Shown piece by piece: positions 4,763-12,991 of a stretch of 31,346 nt of DNA (the stretch's first letter is position 1; the number at the start of each line of letters is the position of its first letter). The position numbers and the translations under genes were made by a program. The DNA comes from Candidatus Acetothermia bacterium. Its GTDB lineage: Bacteria; Bipolaricaulota; Bipolaricaulia; M55B111. Under the pieces are notes generated by a model, which saw only the letters and a list, made by a program, of their open reading frames with translations, was not told the DNA's origin and did not search any database. Location: contig JBKGZT010000008.1 in assembly GCA_046543235.1 (NCBI GenBank), positions 1 to 31,346 of the forward strand, given 5' to 3'.

Positions 4763-6727
4763 TTGACCGAACCAAAACAATGGGTCAAGGAAGACCCTGA
4801 AAGAGAGGACGTATTTTGGCCAACGGAAGAGATGAAGGAAAAGGCCTGGGTTTCCGACGAATCCATCTACGAAGAGGCCCTGGAGAATCCACAGGAGTTC
4901 TGGGCAGAGCACGCCGAGGAAGGGATAGACTGGTACGAGAAGTGGGACGAGACCTACGTAGAAGAACCCTACAACTACGAGTGGTTCAAGGGCGGCAAGC
5001 TCAACCTCACCTATAACGCCGTAGACAGGCACGTAGAAAACGGAGACGGCGACAAGAACGCGATAATCTGGGAACCGGAGCCCACCGACGAAGAGACGGT
5101 CAGAATGACCTACTCCGAACTCAAGGACGAGGTATCGAAGTTCGCCAACGTCCTCGAAGGCTTCGGAGTGGAAAAAGGCGACCGAGTGGGAATCTACATG
5201 CCGATGATTCCGGAAGCACTGATAGCAATGCTCGCCACCGCGAGAGTCGGCGCAGCCCACAGCGTCGTCTTTTCGGCCTTCAGTCCCGACTCACTAAAGG
5301 ATAGGCTGGAAGACGCCGACGCCAAAGTCCTCGTCACCGCCGACGGTTACTACAGGCGGGGCAAACCACTTAACCTGAAGAAGAACGCAAACAAGGGGCT
5401 GGAAGGATCTCCGGTAGAGGACGTGGTTACCGTAAAGCGCACCGGGGCGGACGTCGAGATGGAAGACGGTCGGGACCACTGGTACCACGAGCTGATGGAA
5501 GACGCGGATCCGGAACACGAGCCGGAAGTTATGAACAGCAGCGATCTCGCCTTCATCCTCTACACCAGCGGAACTACCGGTAAGCCAAAGGGAGTCATGC
5601 ATCACGTCGGTGGTTACGCCGTTCAGGCCTATCTGACCGCAAAGTGGAACTTCGATCTCCACGAGGACGACATATTCTGGTGTACTGCGGACGTTGGCTG
5701 GATTACCGGCCATACCTACATTAACTACGGACCTCTTCTCAACGGAGTAACCACAGTGGTCTACGAAGGTGCTCCGGATTATCCCGAGTACGATAGGCTC
5801 TGGCAGATAGTCGAGGACGAGGGAGTGACCGGCTTTTACACCGCTCCAACCGCGATAAGGATGTTTATCAAACAGGGAACCGAGTGGCCTGAAAAACACG
5901 ACCTCTCCAGCTTGAGGGTACTTGGAACGGTCGGTGAGCCGATCAACAAGGACGCCTGGCTCTGGTACTTCGAAAATATCGGCGACGGACGAACTCCGGT
6001 CATCGACACTTGGTGGCAAACCGAAACGGGGGCTAACGTAATAAACTCCTTACCGGGAATAGGCCCCTTCATCCCGACTTACGCCGGCAAGCCCTTTCCG
6101 GGTATCGACGCGGACCTGCTCGACACCGAGGGAAAACCGGTAGGGGTCGACGAGGGAGGCTATCTGACTCTGAAATCGCCCTTCCCGCCGAGTCTGATCA
6201 GGGGAGTCTACAAACGCCCCGAGAAGTTCAAGGACGAGTACTGGAGCGAGTACGGTCCTGACTACTACTTCACCAGCGACGGTGCAAGGAAGGACGAAAA
6301 CGGCAACATAAGGATCACCGGCAGGCTCGATGACGTGATGAACGTGGCCGGCCACAGGCTGGCAACCGGCGAGGTAGAGAACGCGCTGGGCAAACACGAA
6401 GCAGTAGCTGAGCCCGCCGTCGTATCACGTCCGGACGACGTGAAAGGCGAGGTACCCGTCGCGTTCGTCATGCTGGAAAAGGGTGCTGAAATCGACGAAG
6501 AGACCCTGCAGGAGGAACTCATACAGCTGGTTGACGACACGATAGGACCGACTGCGAGGCCGGCTGACATCATAATTGCGGACGAGGTACCGAAGACCAG
6601 ATCCGGCAAGATAATGAGGAGAATTCTGAAAAGCCTCGTCAGAGGCGAAGACGTCGGAGACCTGACTACCCTTAGGAACCCCGGTGCGGTCGAAGACCTC
6701 CAGCAGAAGCTCGAGGAAGAGGAATAG
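4763..6727 (+). CDS. acs: Acetyl-CoA synthetase (AMP-forming)
   Basis: 654 aa. YTSGTTGKPKG, ADVGWITGH, GEPIN, DTWWQTETG, GRLDDVMNVAGHR, PKTRSGKIMRR (acetylatable Lys616). TTG start behind SD AGGAGGG. Confidence 0.96.
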   Translation: MTEPKQWVKEDPEREDVFWPTEEMKEKAWVSDESIYEEALENPQEFWAEHAEEGIDWYEKWDETYVEEPYNYEWFKGGKLNLTYNAVDRHVENGDGDKNAIIWEPEPTDEETVRMTYSELKDEVSKFANVLEGFGVEKGDRVGIYMPMIPEALIAMLATARVGAAHSVVFSAFSPDSLKDRLEDADAKVLVTADGYYRRGKPLNLKKNANKGLEGSPVEDVVTVKRTGADVEMEDGRDHWYHELMEDADPEHEPEVMNSSDLAFILYTSGTTGKPKGVMHHVGGYAVQAYLTAKWNFDLHEDDIFWCTADVGWITGHTYINYGPLLNGVTTVVYEGAPDYPEYDRLWQIVEDEGVTGFYTAPTAIRMFIKQGTEWPEKHDLSSLRVLGTVGEPINKDAWLWYFENIGDGRTPVIDTWWQTETGANVINSLPGIGPFIPTYAGKPFPGIDADLLDTEGKPVGVDEGGYLTLKSPFPPSLIRGVYKRPEKFKDEYWSEYGPDYYFTSDGARKDENGNIRITGRLDDVMNVAGHRLATGEVENALGKHEAVAEPAVVSRPDDVKGEVPVAFVMLEKGAEIDEETLQEELIQLVDDTIGPTARPADIIIADEVPKTRSGKIMRRILKSLVRGEDVGDLTTLRNPGAVEDLQQKLEEEE

Positions 6728-6765
6728 GACTTCAGGTAAAATGCTCACTACCGGAGTGATCGAAC

Positions 6766-7332
6766 TTGGAAATTAACGAAGACGTAGCCAATCCCGCGCC
6801 GCTGGGCCTGGGAGGGTTCGCGCTCTCGACGTTTATCCTTAACCTGGTTAATTCCGGGCTCGTGGACGGTGCCTCCCTGGGCATAGTCATGCCCATGGCA
6901 ATTGCTTACGGAGGTCTCGCCCAGCTACTAGCCGGGATGTGGGAGTTCAGGCGTAACAACGTTTTTGGAGCTACGGCATTTTCATCATTCGGAGCTTTCT
7001 GGATTGGTCTCGCTACCTTTGAAATTCTTACCTGGGCGGGAATAATCTCCGAAGTCCCCAAGGAAGGAATCGCGATAGCACTGGTGGCCTGGGGTATTTT
7101 CACGTTCTACGCAACTATCGCATCCCTCAAGGAGCCCTGGGCAATTACGTGGATATTTATCACCCTGACGATACTATTCTTCTTGCTGGCTTGGGGTGAG
7201 TTTAACTCCACGGTCCATACTATTGCAGGCTACGAGGGGATCTTAGTTGCTTTGATAGCCTGGTATTCGTCCGCGGCAATACTGATCAATTCCATGTTCG
7301 GGCGGACGGTCCTTCCCATGGGAGAACGCTAA
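6766..7332 (+). CDS. satP: Acetate channel/permease, GPR1/FUN34/YaaH (SatP) family
   Basis: 188 aa, about six hydrophobic segments. Family signature ANPAPLGLGGF, YGGLAQ, FGATAFSSFGAFW. Adjacent to acs. Confidence 0.92.
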   Translation: MEINEDVANPAPLGLGGFALSTFILNLVNSGLVDGASLGIVMPMAIAYGGLAQLLAGMWEFRRNNVFGATAFSSFGAFWIGLATFEILTWAGIISEVPKEGIAIALVAWGIFTFYATIASLKEPWAITWIFITLTILFFLLAWGEFNSTVHTIAGYEGILVALIAWYSSAAILINSMFGRTVLPMGER

Positions 7333-7514: not shown

Positions 7515-10118
7515 ATGTTCGACAAAGTAAAAAGAGCGGTAGACTGGATCTTCGGTCAGACAAACGAACAAAAGCTATCCAAGCTCAGGGATTACGTAGA
7601 TCGGGTCAACGAACTTTCTTCGGAAATAAAGAAACTTTCTCCCGAAGAAATGAGGAGAAAGACCGATGAATTCAGGGAAAGAATCGCGGACGGGGCCGAA
7701 CTGGACGATCTGATTCCCGAGGCGTTTGCCTTGGTGAGAGAGGTAGCGGAAAGAGAAACCGGAATGCGGCCTTACGATGTCCAGATCATCGGCGCCGTCG
7801 CCTTGCATCAGAGAAGGATCGCCGAAATGGCTACCGGAGAAGGCAAGACCCTCGTCGCAACGATGCCCGCATACCTGAACGCTCTGGAGGGCCAGGTCCA
7901 TATTGCCACGGTAAACGATTACCTAGCGAGGCGGGATCGAGACTGGATGGGGCCGATTTACGAAGAACTTGGCCTGGACGTCTCCGTTATCCAGGAGAAT
8001 ATGGGGGTCGAAGCCAGAAAGGAAGCTTACGAAGCCGACGTGGTATACGGCACTGCCAACCAGTTCGGCTTCGACTACCTCAGGGATAACATGGTTCTCT
8101 CCAAGGATCAGCGCGTCGGAGCGGAACGTGACTTCGCCATAATCGACGAGATAGATAGCATACTGATAGACGAAGCGAGGACTCCATTGATAATTTCCGG
8201 GTCAACGGAGGAATCAACCAAGCTATACAAGAGATTCGCCTCCCTGGCACCCAGGTTTAAACCCGGTGAAGATTATGAACTGGACGAGAAGAACAAGTCC
8301 ATATCGCTCACGGAAAACGGGGCAAACAAGGCGGAAAACTTCTTGGATCTAGAGGACCTGTATACCCCGGAAAACATCTCCATGCTCCACCACCTAAAAA
8401 CCTCTCTGAAGGCTAAGGAATTCTTTAAGAAGGACGAGGATTACATAATAAAGGACGGGAGCATAGTACTGGTTGACGAGTTCACGGGCCGGCTGATGCC
8501 GGACAGACGACTTTCGGATGGCCTCCATCAGGCAATCGAAGCAAAGGAAGGCATGATGGTGCAAAAGGAGAATCAGACGTTTGCCCAGGTAACCCTACAA
8601 AACTTCTTCCTTCTCTATGACGGGTTGAGCGGCATGACCGGCACGGCCAAGACCGAAGAGGAGGAGTTCGAGGACATCTACGACCTGGACGTGGTCGTCG
8701 TCCCGACCAACGAACCACTTCAACGAGAACACAAGCCCGACGTCATATTCAAGACGAAGAAAGCAAAATACCGGGCCGTGGCTGACGAGGTCGAAGGTTT
8801 ACACGAGAAAGGCAGACCGGTCCTGGTCGGAACCAACGCGATAGAGAAATCGGAAAAACTCAGCGGGCTTCTCGAAGAGAGAGGGGTCCCCCACGAGGTC
8901 CTGAACGCCAAGAACCACGCCAGGGAAGCGGAAATCATCAAGGAAGCCGGGAGGAAGGGAGCAATTACGATCGCAACGAACATGGCCGGGCGCGGTACTG
9001 ACATCAAGCTCGAAAAAGGTGTAGCGGAGCTTGGAGGACTGCACGTACTGGGCACCCAGAGACACGAGAGCCGACGCATCGATAACCAGCTCAGGGGGCG
9101 TGCCGGCCGCCAGGGAGATCCCGGGTCAACCCAATTTTACCTTTCGCTCGAGGACGATCTGCTGAGGATTTTCGGGGGCGATCGAATAGAGAACCTGATG
9201 GAGAAGGCGGGTATGGAAGAAGGCGAGGCAATCGAACACCCCCTCCTGACCAAGGCTATACGCAGAGCCCAAAAGAAAGTCGAGGGTATAAACTACGAAC
9301 GGCGTAAGAACGTGTTGAAGTACGACAAGGTACTGGCACAACAACGCGAGGCAATCTACAGCCTGCGTGACCACTTCCTCCTCTCCGAAGAGGGAAGCAG
9401 TTCCTGGGCGGAAATTGACAGTTACTTAAAGCCGGTACTTCGAGATTACGTGGAGGATTTGCTTGAAGAACACGGCCTGGAAGACGGCGCCAAGGAAGCC
9501 GACCCGGAAGGGCTGGAAAAGGAGCTCTCGGAGTTTCGCAATGCTTCGTTCGATGAGGACCTTCCCGAAGGAGGCTCCAACGACTTAAAGGTTCTCGCGG
9601 AGGAGTTCGTTTTCGAGAACTGGGAAACGCAACTCAACAGGTTCAAAGAGGGGGAGGGGGTAGAACCCGAACTAATCAAGTCGGTCCTGATAAAGGTAAT
9701 AGATCGTAAATGGAGGGACCACCTTTACCTAATAGACGACCTGAAATCGGGCGTTGGGTGGTCGTCTTACGGGGGTAAAGATCCTCTCGTAGAATTCAAG
9801 CGGGAATCCTTTCGGCTATTCCAGGACATGCGGAGCGATTTGCGCCAGGAAATAGTTAACTTGCTGGTAAAAACACGTCTGGAAGTCGAAAGATCGGCCG
9901 AGAAAGTCGATTCGAGGGTCGACACCTCAAAATTCAATTTCCAGGGCGGCGAGAGCCGTGGCGGTTTGCCCGATAAGGAACCTACCGGAACCGACGGGAG
10001 CAGAAATAAGGAATCCAATCAAGGGCAAAGAATAGTAGAGGACGAACCGGGACGGAACGACCCCTGCCCGTGTGGTAGTGGAAAGAAGTATAAATACTGC
10101 TGTGGTGCGGACGACTGA
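7515..10118 (+). CDS. secA: Protein translocase ATPase SecA
   Basis: 867 aa. MATGEGKT Walker A, GFDYLRDN, IIDEIDSILIDEARTPLIISG, NMAGRGTDI, ESRRIDNQLRGRAGRQGDPG, C-terminal zinc-binding GRNDPCPCGSGKKYKYCC. Confidence 0.98.
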   Translation: MFDKVKRAVDWIFGQTNEQKLSKLRDYVDRVNELSSEIKKLSPEEMRRKTDEFRERIADGAELDDLIPEAFALVREVAERETGMRPYDVQIIGAVALHQRRIAEMATGEGKTLVATMPAYLNALEGQVHIATVNDYLARRDRDWMGPIYEELGLDVSVIQENMGVEARKEAYEADVVYGTANQFGFDYLRDNMVLSKDQRVGAERDFAIIDEIDSILIDEARTPLIISGSTEESTKLYKRFASLAPRFKPGEDYELDEKNKSISLTENGANKAENFLDLEDLYTPENISMLHHLKTSLKAKEFFKKDEDYIIKDGSIVLVDEFTGRLMPDRRLSDGLHQAIEAKEGMMVQKENQTFAQVTLQNFFLLYDGLSGMTGTAKTEEEEFEDIYDLDVVVVPTNEPLQREHKPDVIFKTKKAKYRAVADEVEGLHEKGRPVLVGTNAIEKSEKLSGLLEERGVPHEVLNAKNHAREAEIIKEAGRKGAITIATNMAGRGTDIKLEKGVAELGGLHVLGTQRHESRRIDNQLRGRAGRQGDPGSTQFYLSLEDDLLRIFGGDRIENLMEKAGMEEGEAIEHPLLTKAIRRAQKKVEGINYERRKNVLKYDKVLAQQREAIYSLRDHFLLSEEGSSSWAEIDSYLKPVLRDYVEDLLEEHGLEDGAKEADPEGLEKELSEFRNASFDEDLPEGGSNDLKVLAEEFVFENWETQLNRFKEGEGVEPELIKSVLIKVIDRKWRDHLYLIDDLKSGVGWSSYGGKDPLVEFKRESFRLFQDMRSDLRQEIVNLLVKTRLEVERSAEKVDSRVDTSKFNFQGGESRGGLPDKEPTGTDGSRNKESNQGQRIVEDEPGRNDPCPCGSGKKYKYCCGADD

Positions 10119-10288
10119 GTTTAAAAGTTCTTCAACCCGAAACTGCACTTAGTGTTCGTTCACCTCAATACTTCCACAAAATAACTTCGAGACCAAAACT
10201 TTGAATAGATGGGAAAACTGAGGTAAGAATTTTATCGTTCTTTTCCCTTTCAGGGACCAGCTATAGACCATAGTTCGTTTTGTTTCGA

Positions 10289-10316
10289 TTGATTTATCGC
10301 CCAAAAACGTTATAAT
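10289..10316 (+). promoter_or_regulatory. sigma70-type promoter driving the small peptide gene and probably the downstream gene
   Basis: TTGATT (10289-10294)-N16-TATAAT (10311-10316), a perfect -10 box. Predicted +1 near 10323. Confidence 0.6.
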
Positions 10317-10403
10317 AATCATAGACAATATTAGAGTGGAATAGAGGTAAGCTGTTTAACAAGCAAGGTCGATTAACAATATTCACAAAAGGAGGTGTTT
10401 TAG

Positions 10404-10493
10404 ATGGAACCTATAACTGCCATGGTGTTGGGTTTCTTCTGGTCCATGTGGGCAACTGCCTTTCTCTCCTTCATGGGATGCGGAATCTGCTAA
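10404..10493 (+). CDS. Unannotated 29-aa hydrophobic peptide MEPITAMVLGFFWSMWATAFLSFMGCGIC
   Basis: Below the ORF-track size cutoff. Near-perfect SD AAGGAGGTG (10389-10397), ATG at 10404, TAA at 10491-10493, upstream promoter. One membrane-length hydrophobic stretch and a terminal CxxC. Confidence 0.75.
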   Translation: MEPITAMVLGFFWSMWATAFLSFMGCGIC

Positions 10494-10535
10494 CTTTAAA
10501 CAGTTAGAGCAAGCTGCAAAAGATAGGTGATTTTC

Positions 10536-11333
10536 TTGTCGAAACGTAGAATATTAGCAATTGTGGCTATTGGGTTCTCGTTACTAATTCTTTTTACCTT
10601 TCTCGTAACGGGGGACGAGGTCTCGGGCAAGTTATCCCAGGTTATCACGAGCAGGCTTGGCCTTAGCTCAGACGTATACAGGGTCATAGAGACTGAGTAC
10701 CAGGGAGAAAGGGTTATTTTAATTGCTATATATGGAAGCGACCGGGCGCTTGATAGTTCGCTAGGGGAGGACATCAAGTCAGGACTGCAGGAAAACATGG
10801 ACGAATCACCGATAGCGTTATCCGTGCTAACCCGGAAAAAGGACGCCAAATTTCACCCTTACGCTGTGAGAGTTTTACAGGGGGATGAGAAAAAGCGTCC
10901 GAAGAACATGGTCGGAATTACGGAAGGTTTCAAGGACGGTCAGATGCCCGAGAAAGTCCCGATTGAAGATGAAGTATTCTGGGGAAGCAAGGGGATAATT
11001 ACCCTCGGGGACGGATTTGACGCCAGTTCCCCTTTTAAAGTTAAATACGGGTCTTCCAGTGCCGATTTCTCCCTAGGGGACGAGGTAATCAGGCAAGAGG
11101 AAAAAGTCACGGAGGAAAAAGAGGTAACGGAAGAAAAACCCGAAACCGGGGAATCGGGGTTGAAGGCCGCGGAACCAAAAACGGAAAGCAGAGGGGAAGA
11201 CAGTAGCTCTGACTCCGAAACCCCTTCGGATTCGGGGCAAAATTCAGCTGTCAGTGACTCCAGAACTGGACAGGGGGCCACTCTTTTAGCATCGCTGGCG
11301 ACCTTGTTATCAATTACTCTTTCGTTTTTGTAA
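10536..11333 (+). CDS. Hypothetical exported protein: signal peptide, globular domain, acidic/Ser-rich linker and hydrophobic C-terminal tail
   Basis: The ORF track starts at GTG 10527. That GTG is part of the SD AGGTGA (10525-10530), so the in-frame TTG at 10536 is the more likely start (MSKRRILAIVAIGFSLLILFTFLVTG). The protein ends ...TGQGATLLASLATLLSITLSFL. No family recognised. Confidence 0.8.
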   Translation: MSKRRILAIVAIGFSLLILFTFLVTGDEVSGKLSQVITSRLGLSSDVYRVIETEYQGERVILIAIYGSDRALDSSLGEDIKSGLQENMDESPIALSVLTRKKDAKFHPYAVRVLQGDEKKRPKNMVGITEGFKDGQMPEKVPIEDEVFWGSKGIITLGDGFDASSPFKVKYGSSSADFSLGDEVIRQEEKVTEEKEVTEEKPETGESGLKAAEPKTESRGEDSSSDSETPSDSGQNSAVSDSRTGQGATLLASLATLLSITLSFL

Positions 11334-11353
11334 GCGCACGTGCGTTTATAATT

Positions 11354-11407
11354 AAAATAAGAAAACGGGGCAGGACCAAAGAAGGTCCTGCCCCGTTACT
11401 ACTTTTC
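11354..11407. terminator. Intrinsic terminator between convergent genes (strong on the - strand for gcvH, possibly bidirectional)
   Basis: Perfect 14-bp stem AACGGGGCAGGACC (11364-11377) / GGTCCTGCCCCGTT (11384-11397). A-rich left flank gives a U-tract on the - strand; weaker T-rich right flank. Confidence 0.85.
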
Positions 11408-11426
11408 GAAAAAACCTCCGGTTTGT

Positions 11427-11813
11427 TCAAGACTCCTCTTCCACCAATTCTTCGTATTCCGTTTGGGATAACAGCGAGTCAAACTGGCCTTCATCCTTCA
11501 TATCCAGCCTAACCAGCCAACCTTCATCTCTGGGTGATTCATTGATCTTCTCAGGAGCACCTTCCAGGTCATCGTTCACTTCTTTCACTGATCCGTCTAC
11601 AGGAGCCTCTACCTCGGAAACGGACTTGACGGATTCTATAACGACCATTTCTTCCCCTTTGGAGTACTCGTCGCCGGTCTCGGGCAACTCGACGAAAACG
11701 ATATCCCCGAGCTCGTTTTGGGCGTAATCGGTTATCCCCACGCTTACCCCGTGACCTTCCTTTTCCACCCAGTCGTGATTTTCCGTATACCTTACGTTCT
11801 CTTCTTCTGCCAT
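11427..11813 (-). CDS. gcvH: Glycine cleavage system H protein (lipoyl carrier)
   Basis: 128 aa. YTENHDW, GITDYAQNELGDIVFVELP, lipoyl-Lys motif IESVKSVSE, INESPRDEGWL. SD GAGGAGGT. Confidence 0.95.
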   Translation of the reverse strand: MAEEENVRYTENHDWVEKEGHGVSVGITDYAQNELGDIVFVELPETGDEYSKGEEMVVIESVKSVSEVEAPVDGSVKEVNDDLEGAPEKINESPRDEGWLVRLDMKDEGQFDSLLSQTEYEELVEEES

Positions 11814-11968
11814 TGTACCTCCTCTTCAGTTATGATTATGATTTTTGGTAAACAGCTTTGTTCAAAATCCCATCATAAATGCCACTTCGTCCGACATTAT
11901 TTTCCTGAAACCCGGGGATCATTGCAACCTAGAACCCGATTAATTATATTTAATCGGTGAAATTTTCA

Positions 11969-12991
11969 ATGGATGCGGTAATTTTAGCTGCAGGCAAGGG
12001 AACCCGCATGGTTTCGGAAAAGCCAAAGGTACTCCACTATTTACACGGGTCCCCGCTAGTCCAGCACCTGCTCGATTCCATCGGACAAGTCTCAACCGGC
12101 AAGGTAATTTTAGTAATCGGTTACGGGGCGAACCTGGTAAAGGAAGAGCTCGAGGGTAGGAATCTGGAGTTCGTCCTCCAGGAGGAGCAAAAGGGGACGG
12201 CACATGCCCTGGAACAAGCTCGGGAGAAGATAGACTCGGACAGGTTTATCGTCTTCCCCGGCGATATGCCCCTGATTGAGGCAAATTCCATCAGGAAGTT
12301 TCTGGAGAAGTCAACGAAAAATCCGTCCAAAATCTCTCTTCTCACGGTAAAAAGAGAAGACCCAACCGGCTACGGAAGGATAAAGAGGGGAAAAGACGGG
12401 AAAATAGAGGAGATCGTCGAAGAAAAGGATGCGAGCAAGGAAGAGAAGGGGATAAAAGAAGTCAATACGGGGGTATACCTTTTCTCGAACGAAGAATTTA
12501 TCTGGTCCGAACTCCGATCGATCACTCCGGAAAATGCTCAGAACGAACTATACCTGACCGATCTAGTGGAGCGAACTTTTAACCAGGGATTTAAGATATC
12601 TTCTTTTAGGAGTAGTTCTCCCGAGGAATTCCTCGGCGTCAATACTCGCAAGGACCTGGCCAAAGCCGGTCAGGTTATCAACGAAAGGAAGCTTGACTCT
12701 CTGATGGATGGGGGCGTAACAGTGGTAGATCCAGGTAAGACGGTTGTCGAGTCTCCCGTTTCGGTAAAAAAAGATACAGTTATCAGACCTTTCACTACTC
12801 TCAGGGGAGCGACTCAGATCGGCAAAAAGGTCGACCTGGGTCCGAACCTGGAAGTACACGACGGAAAAATCGGGGATGGCGTAGATATAAGCCACTCCGT
12901 GGTCCGGAATGCGGAGGTTTCAAGCGGGCGAGAAGTCCCGCCCTTTAAAGTTTTCGGACCGGAAGATGAGTCCAGCACCGATTCTTCATAA
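11969..12991 (+). CDS. glmU: GlmU-like N-acetylglucosamine-1-phosphate uridyltransferase, C-terminally truncated (about 340 aa)
   Basis: VILAAGKGTRM...PKVLH, QKGTAHA, GDMPLI, DPTGYGRI, EVNTGVY, NAQNELYLTD, GVNTR. Only a short stub of hexapeptide repeats. Start moved to ATG 11969 behind SD GGTGA (the track uses GTG 11957). Conserved glmU-prs-rplY order. Confidence 0.88.
   Translation: MDAVILAAGKGTRMVSEKPKVLHYLHGSPLVQHLLDSIGQVSTGKVILVIGYGANLVKEELEGRNLEFVLQEEQKGTAHALEQAREKIDSDRFIVFPGDMPLIEANSIRKFLEKSTKNPSKISLLTVKREDPTGYGRIKRGKDGKIEEIVEEKDASKEEKGIKEVNTGVYLFSNEEFIWSELRSITPENAQNELYLTDLVERTFNQGFKISSFRSSSPEEFLGVNTRKDLAKAGQVINERKLDSLMDGGVTVVDPGKTVVESPVSVKKDTVIRPFTTLRGATQIGKKVDLGPNLEVHDGKIGDGVDISHSVVRNAEVSSGREVPPFKVFGPEDESSTDSS

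Follow-up and report, generated by a model that had tools for sequence, protein, structure and literature searches.

A conserved 29-residue microprotein with a predicted membrane helix is genetically linked to an exported-protein gene across the Bipolaricaulota

Does an open reading frame (ORF) of 29 codons, lying between secA (7515-10118) and a convergent gcvH, encode a real protein, and if so, what might that protein do together with the product of the gene directly 3' of it? The question arises from an earlier note on a contig of a Candidatus Acetothermia bacterium (JBKGZT010000008.1; the whole stretch of 31,346 nucleotides is called the window here). The note read a TTGATT-N16-TATAAT promoter, an ~80-nt leader, a Shine-Dalgarno site and the 29-codon ORF, and each of these was found at its place when the sequence was read again. 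The features of the locus are listed below.

10289-10316, plus strand: sigma-70-type promoter, with the -35 box TTGATT at 10289-10294, a 16-nt spacer and the -10 box TATAAT at 10311-10316.
10323-10388, plus strand: 5' leader of ~80 nt (folding z-score 0.04, ribosome site exposed).
10389-10397, plus strand: Shine-Dalgarno site AAGGAGGTG, six bases 5' of the ATG at 10404.
10404-10493, plus strand: microprotein gene of 29 codons and a TAA stop codon (10491-10493), read directly and supported by conservation and a median dN/dS of 0.11.
10413-10475, plus strand: codons 4-24, predicted single membrane-spanning helix with a conserved face of Leu9, Phe12, Trp13, Trp16, Phe20 and Phe23.
10479-10490, plus strand: codons 26-29, terminal Cys-x-x-Cys tail, with at least two close Cys in all complete copies of two families.
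10525-10530, plus strand: AGGTGA, the weaker ribosome site of the partner gene, recurring before TTG or GTG in most of 17 syntenic loci.
10536-11333, plus strand: partner gene, 265 aa, TTG start, with a signal/anchor, a predicted beta-sandwich, an acidic linker and a terminal helix.
11364-11397, either strand: two-way hairpin terminator of 14 pairs, closing both the two-gene unit and the convergent gcvH.

The promoter is the top-ranked candidate within positions 9900-11900, with 10 of 12 matches. Four promoter-like sites were found in this interval against 1.8 ± 1.4 in shuffled sequence, so the scan taken by itself is no more than suggestive; a TATAAT-like box also lies ~40-70 nt upstream of the start codon in many related loci. 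The predicted fold of the leader is in no way unusual when compared with shuffles and leaves the Shine-Dalgarno site open, and Rfam gave nothing relevant across 9900-11500, leader included. The microprotein gene is separated from the partner gene by 42 nt, in which a sequence scan found no terminator-like site, and no conserved hairpin or attenuator was found between the two genes in 17 syntenic loci. Because no internal terminator is seen and the 14-pair terminator follows the partner gene, the promoter, the peptide, the 265-aa protein and the terminator are regarded as one unit. Four DNA sequencing runs, all from one study of a hypersaline mat and lake, contain the stretch, and no RNA run is among the matches.

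Other genes of the window were also noted. Directly 5' of secA, at 4763-7332 on the plus strand, lie an acetyl-CoA synthetase gene and an acetate uptake transporter gene (AceTr/SatP type), which we take to fit the acetate metabolism ascribed to the Bipolaricaulota phylum. At 11957-12991 on the plus strand there is a GlmU-like ORF of only 344 aa, which aligns with the first 329 of the 452 positions of the GlmU model (332.5 bits, cut-off 366.85) and, judged from this alignment, seems to be without the end of the acetyltransferase part; prs starts 36 nt after it.

The evidence that the 29-codon ORF is a gene comes from its relatives, and the range of the peptide given here is that of six-frame genome searches. 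Homologues were found in all 18 other genomes of the window's own family (three genera), at one to five copies each; 22 other genomes of the class gave no convincing match to the window peptide itself. Across an 18-codon core of 28 copies (378 pairs), the mean pS is 0.71, which is near saturation, against a pN of 0.12, and the median dN/dS cited above (154 usable pairs) indicates purifying selection. Among the copies, Leu9 is encoded by all six of its codons and Gly10 by all four. Furthermore, a GGAGG-type site (in one case a GGGGG variant) is located 6-9 nt 5' of the start in 29 of the 31 family copies that were compared with their upstream sequence. The two exceptions are L017 and L031. The latter (G005:C180, ~1830-1900) is an extra copy broken by a frame change, with neither a ribosome site nor a start, to be read as a pseudogene or as an error of assembly. 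The conservation, the purifying selection and the strong ribosome sites of nearly all copies together support the note's inference: as judged by sequence comparison, the ORF is a real gene under strong protein-level selection, and its product is probably an abundant microprotein.

The peptide is not represented in the family databases. Neither Pfam nor NCBIfam (the latter at E up to 1) gave a match for the window peptide and 22 relatives, in line with the note, which had recognized no family. The sub-threshold noise consisted of DUF2953, DUF2842 and JDVT-CTERM, of which JDVT-CTERM (NF033191) was considered and rejected: four of the 23 members match it at 12.1-14.5 bits against a curated 27, and the window peptide does not match it. 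The exact window peptide is absent among ~15 billion predicted proteins, which fits its description as unannotated, and three of the ten family members looked up in predicted proteins are present, either unnamed or as "hypothetical protein." A protein-atlas search with a natural 31-residue orthologue returned no usable match, and a narrow search of the literature on the Bipolaricaulota envelope and small membrane proteins found no paper on such a peptide.

We sought whether the peptide gene keeps company with any other gene across the phylum. At 20 loci of the window's own family, a partner of ~250-270 aa lies directly 3' of the peptide; 19 of these loci have secA before the pair and 17 have gcvH after it. 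A profile that included two weak matches from a second family was then used to search that family, and 58 of its 74 genomes have the peptide, with 26-35 residues and, in nearly all cases, a strong ribosome site and a terminal Cys motif. A same-strand partner homologue follows the peptide at 33 of 43 second-family loci; one of the remaining 10 is at a contig end and the others are extra copies. There, neither secA nor gcvH lies in the vicinity, and the genes after the partner are maf and panB. The position downstream of secA, which the note had proposed to inspect, recurs in the own family and not in the second; the secA linkage was rejected as meaningful, because it holds in the window's own family only.

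In six further families, a small aromatic ORF with a ribosome site was found just 5' of the partner at 19 of 20 loci. The filter that defines these ORFs demands a ribosome site, a length of 20-40 codons, a share of hydrophobic or small residues of 80% or more and no fewer than five aromatic residues, and it is passed by 23 ORFs in the 111,924 strand-bases of those loci, 19 at the partner-upstream position and four elsewhere. Two ORFs pass it in the whole window, the microprotein itself and one on the minus strand near 8275, antisense within secA, which is taken as chance. Across families, the peptides next to partner homologues have 24-35 residues. Among 184 genomes of the phylum, the partner profile alone matches 115 and the phylum-wide peptide profile 110. 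Both genes were scored in 103 genomes, the partner only in 12, the peptide only in nine and neither in 60; these genomes are related MAGs, 56-99% complete, so the table overstates independence and is read as co-inheritance and not as an independent statistical test. Two genera (14 and 11 genomes, two closed genomes among them) have neither gene.

The peptide-partner pair persists over at least eight families while all other neighbors change, and the two genes are present or absent together. For an accessory microprotein subunit of a membrane complex, one would look for co-location and co-occurrence with a larger protein, and both are observed here. The earlier suggestion that the peptide is a partner of the downstream exported protein is strongly supported in the sense of genetic linkage.

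The partner starts with an N-terminal hydrophobic signal/anchor, followed by a domain of ~140 residues (about 45-180) and an acidic low-complexity linker; the protein of the window's family ends with a conserved hydrophobic helix (249-265). Its homologues align from the TTG at 10536, where the note had placed the start. No conserved Cys, His or Met is present in the partner alignments. The AlphaFold2 model is a beta-sandwich (mean pLDDT 72, with most 10-residue core blocks above 90), for which Foldseek found no match in the PDB at E up to 0.001. A wide structural search gave best Z-scores of 6.6 (3fbq, 3cfu), with CrdA at 6.0 and archaellin at 5.8; since all of these are within the range common for such searches, assignment to a named fold family was dropped, and the domain is modeled as a generic beta-sandwich. 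The partner belongs to no Pfam family. Its profile collects 44 cluster representatives among 1.84 billion proteins, a protein-atlas search with the domain matched unnamed hypothetical clusters only, and the homologues come from Candidatus Bipolaricaulota/Bipolaricaulia MAGs, some of them filed as "uncultured Thermotogae." The partner varies in architecture among families. At L043 and L047-L085 of the second family, it contains the beta-sandwich module twice in tandem (~370 aa), and the second-family partner has a cleavable-looking signal, is without the terminal helix and looks fully secreted. At L088 and L102, in two other families, a lipobox-like Cys closes the partner signal peptide, a motif suggesting that the partner may be a lipoprotein in some lineages.

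The microprotein itself has a single charged residue (Glu2), a run of ~21 hydrophobic residues (4-24) and a C-terminal Cys-Gly-Ile-Cys, so that the note's description of one charge, one membrane-spanning length and a terminal CxxC is borne out. Phe12 and Trp13 are invariant in the phylum-wide peptide alignment. The conservation moment of that alignment at 100 degrees is 0.68, a value reached by two of 5000 permutations, and that of the family-only alignment is 0.46, reached by 172 of 5000. Conservation of aromatic residues along one face is the pattern expected of a helix that packs against another helix.

Taking these observations together, we tentatively favor, at slightly less than an even chance, an abundant single-pass membrane microprotein that forms one envelope unit with an exported beta-sandwich partner, the Cys pair serving as an accessory clasp. 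The peptide would be co-transcribed with the partner from its own promoter, and both would act as one unit of the cell envelope. The aromatic helix face would pack on further helices, which may belong to more copies of the peptide or to a different membrane protein. Embedded in the membrane, the peptide would be the base of the unit, and the exported protein would make up the outer part. Several peptides may serve each partner, the peptide being made in excess. Such an excess is suggested by the translation signals, because in the window's family the peptide is read from an ATG behind a near-perfect site, whereas the partner has a weaker site and a TTG or GTG start in most loci (TTG in the window). 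Among the observations that count against this account, the second-family partner, fully secreted as it appears to be, has no membrane helix for the peptide to pack against, and stand-alone copies, some of them among the 10 second-family loci mentioned above, suggest that the peptide can act apart from an adjacent partner gene. The note had also proposed a self-assembling envelope subunit, which the peptide may be.

The favored unit resembles a known arrangement. KdpF, CydX, AcrZ and MgtS are single-helix accessory microproteins of membrane complexes, and they share with the peptide a length below 50 residues, one membrane helix, a location in or beside the operon of a larger protein and a frequent lack of annotation. 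The peptide is unrelated to them in sequence, as neither it nor its 22 relatives match a Pfam or NCBIfam family. The partner here, however, is an exported beta-sandwich protein and not a transporter or oxidase, and the peptide differs from those four in its aromatic stripe, its terminal Cys pair and its one to five copies per genome. Another likeness is the YjcZ family of tiny transmembrane sporulation proteins in Bacillus (NCBIfam "tiny_TM_bacill"), with several copies of 30-40 residues, one hydrophobic stretch and a Gly/Cys-rich end; the Bipolaricaulota peptide differs in having no NCBIfam match, in its phylum, in the absence of a sporulation context and in its conserved partner gene. We regard the peptide as a new family within a familiar type, the small membrane protein of one helix that goes with a partner.

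What the Cys tail contributes can be judged from its variation. In two families, every complete copy has at least two Cys a few residues apart, and the interrupted L031 has none. The tails of the own family are Cys-x-x-Cys, Cys-x-x-x-Cys or longer with four Cys, those of the second family are mostly Cys-Gly-Gly-x-Cys or vicinal Cys pairs, and one Bipolaricaulota family has a vicinal Cys pair at both helix ends. Three families, however, retain the peptide and the partner with no Cys in the peptide; these Cys-less peptides were counted as members by position, length, the invariant Phe-Trp and a profile partly built from them. The conservation of CxxC for which the note had proposed to look exists as close Cys in the complete copies of two families and is absent from three others. 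Because peptide and partner persist there without it, the terminal Cys pair is, on this comparison, lineage-specific and strongly kept where present, and not the core of the function.

In the favored unit, the Cys pair, separated by Gly/Pro-rich turns, would most likely tie neighboring peptides together by a disulfide or by a metal ion held in common, and it would act as an accessory stabilizer, because three families do without it. The tail would hand nothing to the partner, since conserved Cys, His and Met are all missing there. In the zinc clasp of CD4/CD8-Lck and the zinc hook of Rad50, each chain contributes no more than one Cys-x-x-Cys or Cys-x-Cys, and a full site arises where chains meet. 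By analogy, an inter-chain clasp of this kind would be within reach of a peptide that has 29 residues and one Cys pair, with the difference that three peptide families have no Cys pair.

Alternatively, the Cys pairs themselves could be the active part, with the peptide as a single-helix thiol relay or handler of soft metals whose Cys pairs at the membrane surface would, without involvement of the partner, bind a thiophilic metal or metalloid and hand it on, or take part in disulfide exchange. The unbroken presence of close Cys in two families, the Cys pairs at both helix ends in one family and the existence of stand-alone copies are all consistent with this account. MerT, MerF and MerC likewise have vicinal or close Cys at the ends of membrane helices, although these proteins have at least two helices and belong to mer operons with MerP and MerA, and no such genes lie near the peptide copies examined. 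We nevertheless consider the relay unlikely: the Cys-less families keep both genes, the surface under selection is the aromatic face and not the tail, and no metal-resistance or redox gene is among the recurrent neighbors. The "redox or metal" half of the note's partnership proposal is likewise weakened, because the partner has no conserved Cys, because the peptides of three families have none and because one family has Cys pairs at both ends.

The extra copies of the peptide stand alone in unrelated contexts with their own promoters, and the neighbors of ten such copies are unrelated housekeeping or envelope genes, which implies that the peptide can act without an adjacent partner gene. Three of the stand-alone copies (L026, L029 and L033) lie ~1 kb downstream of a shared protein of 282-305 aa, which resembles OmpH, below threshold, at two of these loci. 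The stand-alone copies with promoters of their own, together with the very small size, the almost wholly hydrophobic composition and the several copies per genome, would also suit an autonomous membrane-active peptide, either type I toxin-like or a membrane disruptor used in stress or competition, for which adjacency to the partner would be historical only. Against this account, which we regard as improbable, is the order of peptide and partner gene, which holds in at least eight families. Furthermore, type I toxins are usually far less conserved than the helix of this peptide, and the ribosome site is open (z 0.04) and strong (29 of 31 copies), not sequestered. No promoter-like site was found on the opposite strand near the ORF (minus strand, 10289-10540; promoter scan of the sequence alone). 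The type I toxin offered as one option in the note is unlikely on these grounds, namely the constant gene order, the exposed ribosome site and the negative result of the antisense promoter scan.

Three further accounts are each very improbable. The first, which the note raised from the Phe-Met-Gly-Cys of the window peptide, is a lipoprotein-type prepeptide that Lgt and LspA would process to a lipidated tetrapeptide or to a released, functional signal peptide. This motif fits the loose PROSITE lipobox pattern, both enzymes are encoded in the assembly of the window (Lgt, 175.8 bits; LspA, 116.3 bits), and the peptide shares with lipoprotein signal peptides its length, its hydrophobic core and, in the window's family, a small residue before the Cys (Gly25-Cys26). 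The PROSITE lipoprotein rule, however, needs a Lys or Arg in the n-region, and none of the 25 aligned copies has either among its first seven residues, before the helix. In most second-family copies the residue before the first Cys is Trp, and three families have no Cys at all. Moreover, only three residues follow the Cys, and the "signal" part, hydrophobic core included, is where conservation lies, in contrast to ordinary signal peptides. The lipobox option therefore fails on the absent basic residues, on the Trp before Cys in the second family and on the conserved "signal" part.

The second of these accounts, a RiPP precursor whose hydrophobic part would be the leader of a modified, exported Cys-containing peptide, has a slender chance at best. 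A conserved N-terminal part, a variable Cys-rich end and several copies per genome would suit it, but a fully hydrophobic RiPP leader is unusual, the variable part is just 4-8 residues long, and no recurrent maturase, protease or exporter was found in the window, at the ten stand-alone loci or in the second family, where the following genes are maf and panB. The third, a regulatory leader peptide whose translation would only tune expression of the downstream gene, could draw on the position of the ORF 42 nt 5' of the partner gene in one transcription unit, and we give it equally little credence: the amino-acid sequence is selected and not the reading frame alone, stand-alone copies have no downstream partner, and no attenuator or conserved hairpin was found 3' of the ORF. 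A thioredoxin-fold or heavy-metal-associated Cys-x-x-Cys protein was rejected, as 29 residues, 21 of them in one hydrophobic helix, leave no room for a fold of ~70-110 residues and no Pfam match was obtained.

The favored unit of membrane microprotein and exported partner can be extended, at a small probability, to a phylum-specific envelope module in which multiple copies of 24-35-residue aromatic helices, clasped by disulfides or by metal sites shared between Cys pairs, would form a platform that holds or organizes the periplasmic partner. In one family, clasping might take place on both membrane faces. A bolder variant would make the Cys-helix-Cys form the smallest known thiol relay, moving a soft metal across the membrane. 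A preprint on the first cultured Bipolaricaulota member describes a multilayered envelope, sheath-like polar extensions and an S-layer (bioRxiv 10.1101/2025.11.21.689855). Speculatively, the module could be part of this multilayered, sheath-bearing envelope.

The microprotein is among the most conserved sequences of its neighborhood and yet is missing from ~15 billion predicted proteins. Small membrane proteins are routinely missed, and the present locus illustrates well why the annotation of MAGs should include conserved genes of very small size. The tie to the partner spans a candidate phylum whose first culture appeared only in a preprint of 2025. The two genes define a module marked by the aromatic face of the helix, by a Cys pair that can be dispensed with and by translation signals of unequal strength, and a laboratory host could be used to express and test it. 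Such a module could be a marker of, and an entry point to, the unusual envelope biology of the Bipolaricaulota.
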